This document shows positions 6,644 to 7,512 of a stretch of 17,644 nt of DNA, piece after piece (positions within the stretch are counted from its first letter, which is position 1; each line of letters opens with the position of its first letter). The notes under the pieces were generated by a model that was given only the letters and a program-made list of their open reading frames with translations, was not told the origin of the DNA and ran no database searches. The position numbers and the translations under genes were made by a program. This DNA is from a virus. Its lineage: Duplodnaviria > Heunggongvirae > Uroviricota > Caudoviricetes. The stretch covers positions 1 through 17,644 of the IMG/VR virus record IMGVR_UViG_2737471835_000010. The stretch is one strand, 5' to 3'.

Positions 6644-6682
6644 TTGCGCATTATGCAAGTGTTTTTGTTGCGAGATATGCAA
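6644..6682. promoter_or_regulatory. Putative OL operators: two 15-bp sites TTGCGCATTATGCAA and TTGCGAGATATGCAA
   Basis: Two copies of a TTGCG-N5-ATGCAA dyad-symmetric motif lie 9 bp apart just downstream of the cI terminator. A third copy (TTGCGCGTTAAGCAA) lies in the cI-cro intergenic region. Confidence 0.45.
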
Positions 6683-6692
6683 TTTAAAGGGT

Positions 6693-6717
6693 AATGAAAA
6701 GCCACCTTTGGGTGGCT
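6693..6717 (-). terminator. Rho-independent terminator downstream of the cI-like repressor
   Basis: Minus-strand hairpin AGCCACC-CAAA-GGTGGCT followed by TTTTCATT, 20 nt after the cI stop. Confidence 0.65.
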
Positions 6718-6737
6718 AATTGATGAGGAGGTAAGGG

Positions 6738-7430
6738 TTAATTGTGTCGCTTAAGGGTTTGTGACTGGCTGATTAAGACCTTTCCAAAGACCATAAACCG
6801 GTGTTCATTTTCGCTGGTAATTCCCCATTCACGGTAAATCTGGTTATCAGAAATCACCAGTAGTTTGTCAGGTATCATTTGCAGTCGTTTGACATAAATT
6901 TTATCATCAAAACCAAATACATAGATACCATCTCCATCAAACTGATTGATACTGACATCAACGAAGATGAGATCTCCTGGCTCAATGGTTGGACACATAC
7001 TGTCCCCACGAACGTTGATAACTTTAATGTGATTGGCTGGCCGTCCGCCAAACATCGATACAGCATTATCAGTTCTGTATTCAATGGCATGAATCACATC
7101 AATGACATCACCGCCCTGGATAAGGCCATTTCCCGCACTGGCACTGACATCCAGCATTTCAATACGGAATACATCCTTCACCTGCGCAACATCCTCACTA
7201 ATACTGTTTTTACATACAGTATTACTTTTGACGTCTGAGGTAAAGAGATCAGCAATATCAACACCTAAGCTCCTGGCAATATTACTCAGGGCTTGTTCAG
7301 TGAATTGTTTCTGCTTACCTGTTTCCAGGCGTGAGATATTCGCCGCATCCACTCCTATTGCTTCAGCGAGATCGGCGATTTTCATGTTCTTCGCCTGGCG
7401 AAGTTGTCTGACTCGGTTTCCTATGTTCAT
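6738..7430 (-). CDS. cI: cI-like prophage repressor (N-terminal XRE HTH plus C-terminal S24 LexA-like autopeptidase)
   Basis: N-terminal HTH (RQAKNMKIADLAEAIGVDAANISRLETGK). C-terminal S24 signature with Ser (RGDSMCPTIEPGDLIFVD) and downstream Lys (YVKRL). No Shine-Dalgarno is evident upstream, which is compatible with a leaderless pRM-type transcript as for lambda cI. Confidence 0.9.
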   Translation of the reverse strand: MNIGNRVRQLRQAKNMKIADLAEAIGVDAANISRLETGKQKQFTEQALSNIARSLGVDIADLFTSDVKSNTVCKNSISEDVAQVKDVFRIEMLDVSASAGNGLIQGGDVIDVIHAIEYRTDNAVSMFGGRPANHIKVINVRGDSMCPTIEPGDLIFVDVSINQFDGDGIYVFGFDDKIYVKRLQMIPDKLLVISDNQIYREWGITSENEHRFMVFGKVLISQSQTLKRHN

Positions 7431-7450
7431 GCGTTTATTACATTTCTTTA

Positions 7451-7512
7451 TTGCGCGTTAAGCAAATCAACTTGCGCAAAATATTTGCGTGAAATAATAT
7501 GCTCATCACGCA
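7451..7512. promoter_or_regulatory. OR region: operator-like sites and putative pR (-35 TTGCGC 7472-7477, 17-bp spacer, -10 TAATAT 7495-7500)
   Basis: Contains TTGCGCGTTAAGCAA (7451-7465), the palindrome TTGCGCAA (7472-7479), and TTGCGTGA ... TCACGCAA (7485-7512). The -35/-10 pair has 17-bp spacing and is followed by GGAGG and the cro ATG at 7528. Confidence 0.5.

Follow-up and report, generated by a model that had tools for sequence, protein, structure and literature searches.

Background

The systems closest to the one described here are the lysogeny switches of lambdoid phages. In lambda, divergent cI and cro genes, the former encoding a repressor with a helix-turn-helix (HTH) DNA-binding domain and a self-cleaving S24 C-terminal domain, are accompanied by several quasi-palindromic 17-bp operators, which flank cI on either side and overlap the leftward and rightward early promoters (pL and pR) and the promoter of cI itself (pRM); the operators, their spacing, the weak pRM with its leaderless mRNA, and the SOS cleavage of the repressor are well established. 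Three full operators in each of the left and right operator regions (OL and OR) are typical of lambda, but not universal among lambdoid phages. In the operators of 434 and P22 c2, short conserved outer half-sites (ACAA-N6-TTGT in 434 and ATTTAAG-type in P22) stand one helical turn apart and enclose an A/T-rich, variable centre, which the 434 repressor reads indirectly. In TP901-1 (OD) and mycobacteriophage L5 (stoperators), operators also lie inside or beyond the cro-like gene. Here we analyze a 17,644-nt stretch of viral DNA assigned to the Caudoviricetes (IMG/VR record IMGVR_UViG_2737471835_000010, positions 1 to 17,644; hereafter the window), in which repeated 15-bp dyads on both sides of a cI-like repressor gene are very likely the operators of a prophage immunity switch of the lambda cI/Cro type.

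The locus shares with lambda the divergent cI and cro genes and the two-domain repressor, several quasi-palindromic operators on both sides of cI overlapping predicted pL, pR, and pRM promoters, a centre-to-centre distance of 22–24 bp between OL sites, a weak pRM with a probably leaderless cI mRNA, and a predicted SOS cleavage site. It differs from lambda in the length of its sites (15 bp, TTGCG-N5-CGCAA), in having two sites at OL, in an OR where an invariant 8-bp palindrome and two full sites 48 bp apart take the place of three full sites, in carrying an extra dyad within cro, in using an operator half-site as the −35 element of all three promoters, in the HTH_3 (434-like) DNA-binding domains of both its repressor and its Cro, and in that no N gene is seen beside pL. 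With 434 and P22 c2 it has in common the HTH_3 domain family (a PDB sequence search matches a 434-repressor derivative, E 2e-4) and the arrangement of outer half-sites around an A/T-rich centre, whereas half-site sequence and site length differ and the window repressor shows little identity to theirs. Salmonella phage ST104 has an HK022-type repressor, annotated for its similarity to HK022 cI, with which the window repressor shares domain architecture and cI/cro layout. The dyad in cro recalls TP901-1 OD and the L5 stoperators in lying downstream of the early lytic promoter, but the window has a single such site with a weaker consensus match (9.8 bits) and no sign of hexameric looping or orientation-dependent arrest.

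Dyad Motif and Its Conservation

Scanning both strands of the window reveals three exact matches to the motif TTGCGNNNNNWGCAA, all of which flank the cI-like gene, with none elsewhere. These are the three 15-mers that the initial annotation had proposed as shared OL and OR sites: OL-a, the promoter-proximal left operator (TTGCGCATTATGCAA, 6644–6658), OL-b (TTGCGAGATATGCAA, 6668–6682), and OR-a, the cI-proximal right operator (TTGCGCGTTAAGCAA, 7451–7465). Dinucleotide shuffles contain on average 0.20 matches, and three or more were reached in none of 200 shuffles. The pentamer TTGCG by itself is not enriched (36 observed versus 52 expected), so the signal is the dyad and not base composition. 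Allowing one mismatch adds a fourth full site, the cro-proximal OR-c (7499–7513, ATGCTCATCACGCAA; TTGCGTGATGAGCAT on the minus strand). The element TCACGCAA (7506–7513), one of three half-site variants in the initial annotation, is thus the right part of this full site and not a lone half-site. A weight matrix trained solely on the sites of relatives and then applied to all 15-mers of the window ranks these four operators highest, at 20.7 (OL-a), 18.8 (OL-b), 17.4 (OR-a), and 15.5 bits (OR-c), where Markov-simulated windows yield 0.11 expected matches at 15.5 bits or more.

The consensus is (T/A)TGCG-N5-(C/T/A)GCA(A/T). From the start of one half-site (TTGCG) to that of the other (CGCAA) is 10 bp, and the central columns between them are A/T-rich and variable, with site position 8 being A or T in 27 of 28 sites. 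We suggest that a dimer of the cI-like repressor recognizes TTGCG-N5-CGCAA through these 5-bp half-sites, one helical turn apart, and that the A/T-rich centre would not be read base by base.

Relatives collected for comparison were phages SfII, mEp460, ST64B, F1055, and one Klebsiella phage, together with eight genomic loci from Shigella, Citrobacter (three), Pseudescherichia, Klebsiella spallanzanii, Buttiauxella, and Trabulsiella (cI 66–97% identical). The full sites occupy the same positions in all of them, down to 63% cI identity, including mEp460, SfII, and ST64B, whose repressors are 99.6%, 96.5%, and 83.5% identical to that of the window. Information content was calculated from a spacer alignment of 11 sequences (cI 63–97% identical). 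Both halves of OR-a and the ATGC side of OR-c reach 2.0 bits per column and the CGCAA half of OR-c 1.9, while the five central bases of each site have about 0.75–0.9 (0.9 for the N5 of OR-a; 0.7–1.0 for centres over the footprint as a whole) and a variable stretch at 7480–7492 has 0.7; in OR-c, ATGC and GCAA are invariant in the 11 relatives around a variable centre. Since the centres and 7480–7492 vary while the half-sites stay fixed, neutral change had ample time and yet stops at the half-sites. Likewise, among 80 IMG/VR loci with 99–100% identical cI, variants are confined to central bases, position 11, and the outermost T, and those of OL-a to central bases only.

Chance or recent shared ancestry, with no function attached to the matches, is a scarcely credible explanation of this pattern. 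Many carriers are indeed near-identical Escherichia coli prophages, as such an explanation would have it, but it accounts neither for the shuffling result nor for half-sites that are invariant in relatives whose centres and flanks are randomized, and the variable 7480–7492 within the same spacer shows that neutral change did happen.

The complete mEp460 genome (44.5 kb), which has the same immunity region, contains four exact motifs, three at the immunity region and one within its rha gene. Operator-like dyads, exact or with one mismatch, cluster in this rha/antirepressor gene (mEp460 33888–33902, 33935–33949, and 34052–34066; ST64B 4942–4956), a gene absent from the window.

Repressor and Cro

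The flanked gene (6738–7430, minus strand) encodes a protein of 230 amino acids with an N-terminal HTH_3 domain (Pfam, 1e-10) and a C-terminal Peptidase_S24 domain (6e-19), which bears out its earlier identification as a cI-type repressor. Its translation contains the self-cleavage set of LexA and cI proteins, Ala99-Gly100, Ser144 (in GDSM), and Lys181, and we predict that it is a self-cleaving S24 autopeptidase. RecA-stimulated cleavage at the Ala-Gly site by the Ser/Lys dyad would release the operators. The divergent cro-like gene (7528–7788, plus strand; 86 amino acids), preceded by a Shine-Dalgarno sequence GGAGG (7519–7523, plus strand), also encodes an HTH_3 protein (6e-10). Because the predicted recognition helices of the two proteins are alike (DAANISRLETG in cI, NPATLSRIERLE in Cro), Cro probably reads the same sites as cI, as in 434. 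A gene of the Phage_CP76 (CII/YmfL-like) family follows cro.

The GenBank record of mEp460 (JQ182728) has a repressor at 2260–2907 that begins at an internal Met (216 amino acids) and thereby loses HTH helix 1. The same record annotates plus-strand open reading frames at 1609–1752 and 1794–2162 inside the leftward leader described below, which the NCBI pipeline does not call in E. coli. Both the short repressor and the leader reading frames are probably annotation artefacts.

Probable Left Operator, Predicted pL, and the Leader

The window, like 9 of 11 relatives, has two sites at OL and not the three of lambda. The position of OL-a is kept in relatives, and the centre of OL-b lies 24 bp from that of OL-a (22–24 bp in relatives). 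The right half of OL-a provides the predicted −35 of pL, TTGCAT (6658–6653, minus strand), separated by a 17-bp spacer from a conserved hexamer, the predicted −10, TATCTT (6635–6630, minus strand). Exactly 8 nt past the proximal OL site, 17 nt from its TTGCNN half, 11 of the 12 family sequences have a TAnnnT hexamer, whose versions across the family are TATCTT (eight), TAATTT (two), TATCAT, and TATGGT. Transcription is predicted to start near 6623, at the head of a structured leader of ∼590 nt, which agrees with the initial placement of pL directly upstream of that leader. With OL-a supplying the −35, bound repressor would stop leftward early transcription into the leader. Directly before the OL sites, a terminator scan identifies an intrinsic terminator of the cI transcript (6717–6700, minus strand), the stem of which is conserved or compensated in relatives; the SfII annotation has a terminator at the same place.

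The leader is untranslated, lies between pL and yfdP (6040–6625, minus strand), and has a fold z score of −4.0. It ends in two tandem intrinsic terminators, a stem at 6180–6218 and a 25-bp stem at 6084–6172, each followed by a T run. The NCBI pipeline annotates no gene in 6036–6737, and Rfam gave nothing meaningful, either at the gathering threshold over the whole window or at an E-value threshold over 5950–7600. No N-like gene is seen beside pL.

A small RNA of E. coli K1 RS218, sRNA-17, lies in an mEp460-like prophage (PMC7719688). Mapped onto the window by its published primers (PMC7719688), it falls in the pL leader on the minus strand, in the same direction as pL (6174–6350), with its 3′ terminator end at 6174–6223 and its “promoter fragment” at 6347–6596, and it ends at the first leader terminator. 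The central part of sRNA-17, to which the Northern probe and the primers for rapid amplification of cDNA ends correspond, is absent from the window, where 6241–6331 is a different stretch of 91 nt, unlike mEp460. Rather than an independent gene, sRNA-17 might be a fragment, left by processing or termination, of the pL transcript or of read-through from cI.

Probable Right Operator and Its Predicted Promoters

The cI and cro genes diverge across a 97-bp spacer, which as a whole is roughly symmetric about position 7482 (arms 7449–7480 and 7484–7515). On the cI side, the right half of OR-a supplies a predicted pRM −35, TTGCTT (7465–7460, minus strand), at a 17-bp spacing from a predicted −10, TGTAAT (7442–7437, minus strand), whose complement, ATTACA, shows no change across 11 relatives (2.0 bits per column) while the flanking bases vary. 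Because 6 nt separate this −10 from the cI ATG and the window sequence has no Shine-Dalgarno sequence before that ATG, the cI mRNA is probably leaderless, starting at 7430. The promoter should be weak, as its −10 is without an A at position −11. OR-a spans approximately −35 to −21 of pRM and negative autoregulation is therefore predicted, in that occupancy of OR-a, over the −35 and spacer of a weak promoter, should limit cI synthesis.

On the cro side, the initial annotation described a well-spaced promoter overlapping OR, and this assignment holds: a predicted pR −35, TTGCGC (7472–7477, plus strand), lies 17 bp from a predicted −10, TAATAT (7495–7500, plus strand; TAACAT in some relatives, with TAA-AT invariant), and both hexamers are conserved in every relative. 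The predicted start is near 7507. OR-c covers about −8 to +7 of pR, taking in the predicted start site and the final 2 bp of the −10, and a repressor bound there would block cro transcription.

The pR −35 is embedded in an invariant 10-mer, ACTTGCGCAA (7470–7479, 10 of 10 columns invariant in 11 relatives), which contains one or two orphan half-sites. Within it, the half-site-like TTGCGCAA (7472–7479), an 8-bp palindrome, would be the pR −35 carrying these half-sites. The 15-mer beginning at the TTGCG of ACTTGCGCAA is a one-mismatch site, TTGCGCAATTCGCTA, in the Klebsiella phage only; the other relatives have a degenerate right half. ACTTGCGCAA may be a weak, cooperativity-dependent analogue of OR2 spanning 7472–7486 (about −42 to −49 of pRM), or it may simply be the pR −35. 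A full middle operator was sought in three registers, 7472–7486, 7465–7479, and the everted CGCAA-N5-TTGCG at 7475–7489, and none has two family-conserved halves. The everted arrangement in the middle of OR consists of orphan half-sites with no partner at operator geometry; members from E. coli, Shigella, and Citrobacter, whose cI is at least 93% identical, share it, but ST64B, Klebsiella, and the others do not. The remaining half-site variant of the initial annotation, TTGCGTGA (7485–7492), does exist, as TTGCGCAA and TCACGCAA do, but is conserved solely among the closest relatives and probably not functional.

A further dyad, OR-d (GTGCGTAAGGCGCAC, 7549–7563), occupies codons 8–12 of cro and has the fifth-best matrix score in the window (9.8 bits). 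Its centre is 50 bp from that of OR-c, at about +49 of pR, and in more distant relatives it reads TTGCG-N5-CGCAT. None of 11 relatives departs from TGCG and CGCA, not even Pseudescherichia, whose first seven cro codons are unrelated. Inside the dyad, Arg is encoded by CGN in 11 of 11 sequences, Leu by TTG in 7 of 7, and Ser by TCG in 6 of 6, while just upstream Arg codons alternate between CGN and AGR and Leu codons among TTA, TTG, and CTC. Codon choice that is fixed inside the dyad and free just upstream of it argues for selection on the DNA itself. OR-d is perhaps a fourth operator, which may add a roadblock or a looping anchor.

The three predicted promoters have in common a 17-bp spacer and a −35 that is an operator half-site (TTGCNN). 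This regularity could mean that the TTGC elements are conserved merely as −35 hexamers, that the dyads are by-products, and that no protein recognizes the 15-mer. We consider this very improbable, because the partner GCAA, 10 bp away and needed by no promoter, is equally invariant, because OL-b, OR-c, and OR-d sit at no −35, and because −35 hexamers tolerate variation, yet these positions are invariant over ∼35% cI divergence.

Several of our results weigh against a lambda-type operator array at this locus. The matrix ranking is partly circular, since the training sites of the relatives were chosen with the motif. OR consists of two full sites 48 bp apart plus ACTTGCGCAA, with no clear third full site that would make it tripartite. 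The conservation of OR-d is in part protein-level, given that OR-d is coding. A consensus promoter scan called none of pR, pL, and pRM, having missed them because every −35 matches three of six positions, so that the promoter assignments rest on conservation and not on score. The sole call of that scan in the spacer, a minus-strand candidate at 7521–7494, was rejected as it is not conserved and its −35 falls in the variable Shine-Dalgarno region. Lastly, if matrix score tracks affinity, the order of affinities is the reverse of that in lambda, the best-matching OR site overlapping the promoter of the repressor itself and not pR. Against these points stand the sites with their statistics and conservation, the promoter hexamers, and the protein domains, from which we infer binding, affinity order, start sites, cooperativity, and induction, and operators of a lambda-type cI/Cro switch are still very probably what the dyads represent.

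The same features allow a more specific proposal, which we put forward as doubtful, that the geometry of OR is not that of lambda. With two full sites 48 bp apart, TTGCGCAA serving as the pR −35 with overlapping half-sites, and a fourth site 50 bp on in cro, repressor oligomers bridging OR and OL (0.8 kb away) might wrap or roadblock pR and not simply occlude it. If so, a best site on the repressor's own promoter would imply a logic of autoregulation unlike that of lambda.

Immunity Specificity

The initial annotation held that the motif defines the immunity specificity of the prophage. In comparison with other lambdoid types, a different recognition helix goes with different dyads. The HK022-type cI of ST104 is 42% identical to that of the window and has the helix AQPTIWRLTSG in place of DAANISRLETG; its spacer has no TTGCG-N5-NGCAA within one mismatch and instead carries TGCAAGCA/TGCTTGCA-type dyads. 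An HK022 immunity type was thus rejected for the window, and the HK022 type is a separate one, since operator sequence and recognition helix both differ. The recognition helix of phage IdasGreatGrand is also different, and its spacer is without a TTGCG-N5-NGCAA site. The Fels-1 repressor (52% identical) has a similar but not identical helix, DVGNISRLERG, and a Fels-1 type was rejected because that spacer carries ATGTA-N5-TACAT and CACATAATATGTG dyads. The e14 type (YmfK) was rejected on the grounds that BLASTP similarity is limited to the S24 domain, with no detectable similarity in the DNA-binding domain; the e14 spacer has GGTACA-type repeats, and all that e14 shares with the window is the ymfL-like gene downstream. 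The PST2 Stx2a phages, which are operator-less (Yin et al. 2015, PMC4587872), are not among the phage matches to the window cI at E ≤ 1e-60.

The helix D[ASG]AN[IV]SR[LV]ETGKQK is kept throughout the family of the window. Because the motif tracks the DNA-binding domain of the repressor in this way, the comparison supports its role in immunity specificity, and we propose an mEp460/SfII/ST64B immunity group defined by this helix together with TTGCG-N5-NGCAA at OL and OR, to which the window, having both, would belong.

This covariation also bears on which protein binds the dyads. They could be the targets of another regulator, either Cro alone or the CP76/CII-like YmfL protein, with cI acting at other, unrecognized sites. 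Cro is likewise an HTH_3 protein encoded beside the sites, a CII-like gene follows cro, and the present data do not separate cI binding from Cro binding. We nevertheless judge such an arrangement improbable, given that operator type switches together with the cI recognition helix across families, that no further repeated dyad was found in either intergenic region, that proteins with helices as alike as those of Cro and cI are more likely to share sites than to have exclusive ones, and that sites of a CII-type activator are not expected over the pR −10 and start site or at OL. Recognition by cI, with Cro probably sharing the sites, is the reading we prefer.

Distribution and Genomic Context

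The immunity region is 94–96% identical to those of mEp460, several ECOR-derived phages, and cdtI and Stx2 phages (Stx2a_1447, Stx2a_WGPS2, 1720a-02, and phiSTEC1575-Stx2k), 92.5% identical to that of Shigella SfII, and ∼72% identical to that of Salmonella ST64B. Among 5,426 complete E. coli genomes, about 990 contain 80% or more of 6000–8400. The same repressor type occurs in serotype-converting Shigella SfII, in Salmonella ST64B, in cdt and Stx2 phages of E. coli O157:H7 and O174, and in Klebsiella and Citrobacter prophages.

In the literature searched, we found neither published operators for mEp460, SfII, or ST64B nor these site sequences, although an earlier account may exist in the ST64B genome paper or in the paper on Dam and ST64B. 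On the sequence evidence, these are almost certainly real and well-supported operators of a widespread, apparently uncharacterized immunity group built on the known lambda/434 plan. As the mechanism is textbook, the gain is one of coverage and not of concept. The operator consensus predicts which prophages of the group exclude one another, offers targets for engineering or inducing them, and lets annotation pipelines mark pL, pR, and pRM throughout the group.

At the left end of the window (1–2252), three plus-strand open reading frames (350, 131, and 265 amino acids) separate the tRNA-Ser attachment side from the integrase; nothing in Pfam or PADLOC matches them, and they may be cargo. The interval 6000–8400 is 100% identical to E. 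coli EC147566, where it adjoins tRNA-Ser and mtfA. Window and EC147566 run together at 99.3% identity as far as 13848 and part there, at a mosaic junction immediately past the Q antiterminator gene. Beyond it EC147566 has a truncated tail-fibre gene, whereas the window continues from 13849 with mEp460-like late genes, among them a methylase and lysis genes, so that a truncated prophage, as suggested by EC147566, does not describe the window.

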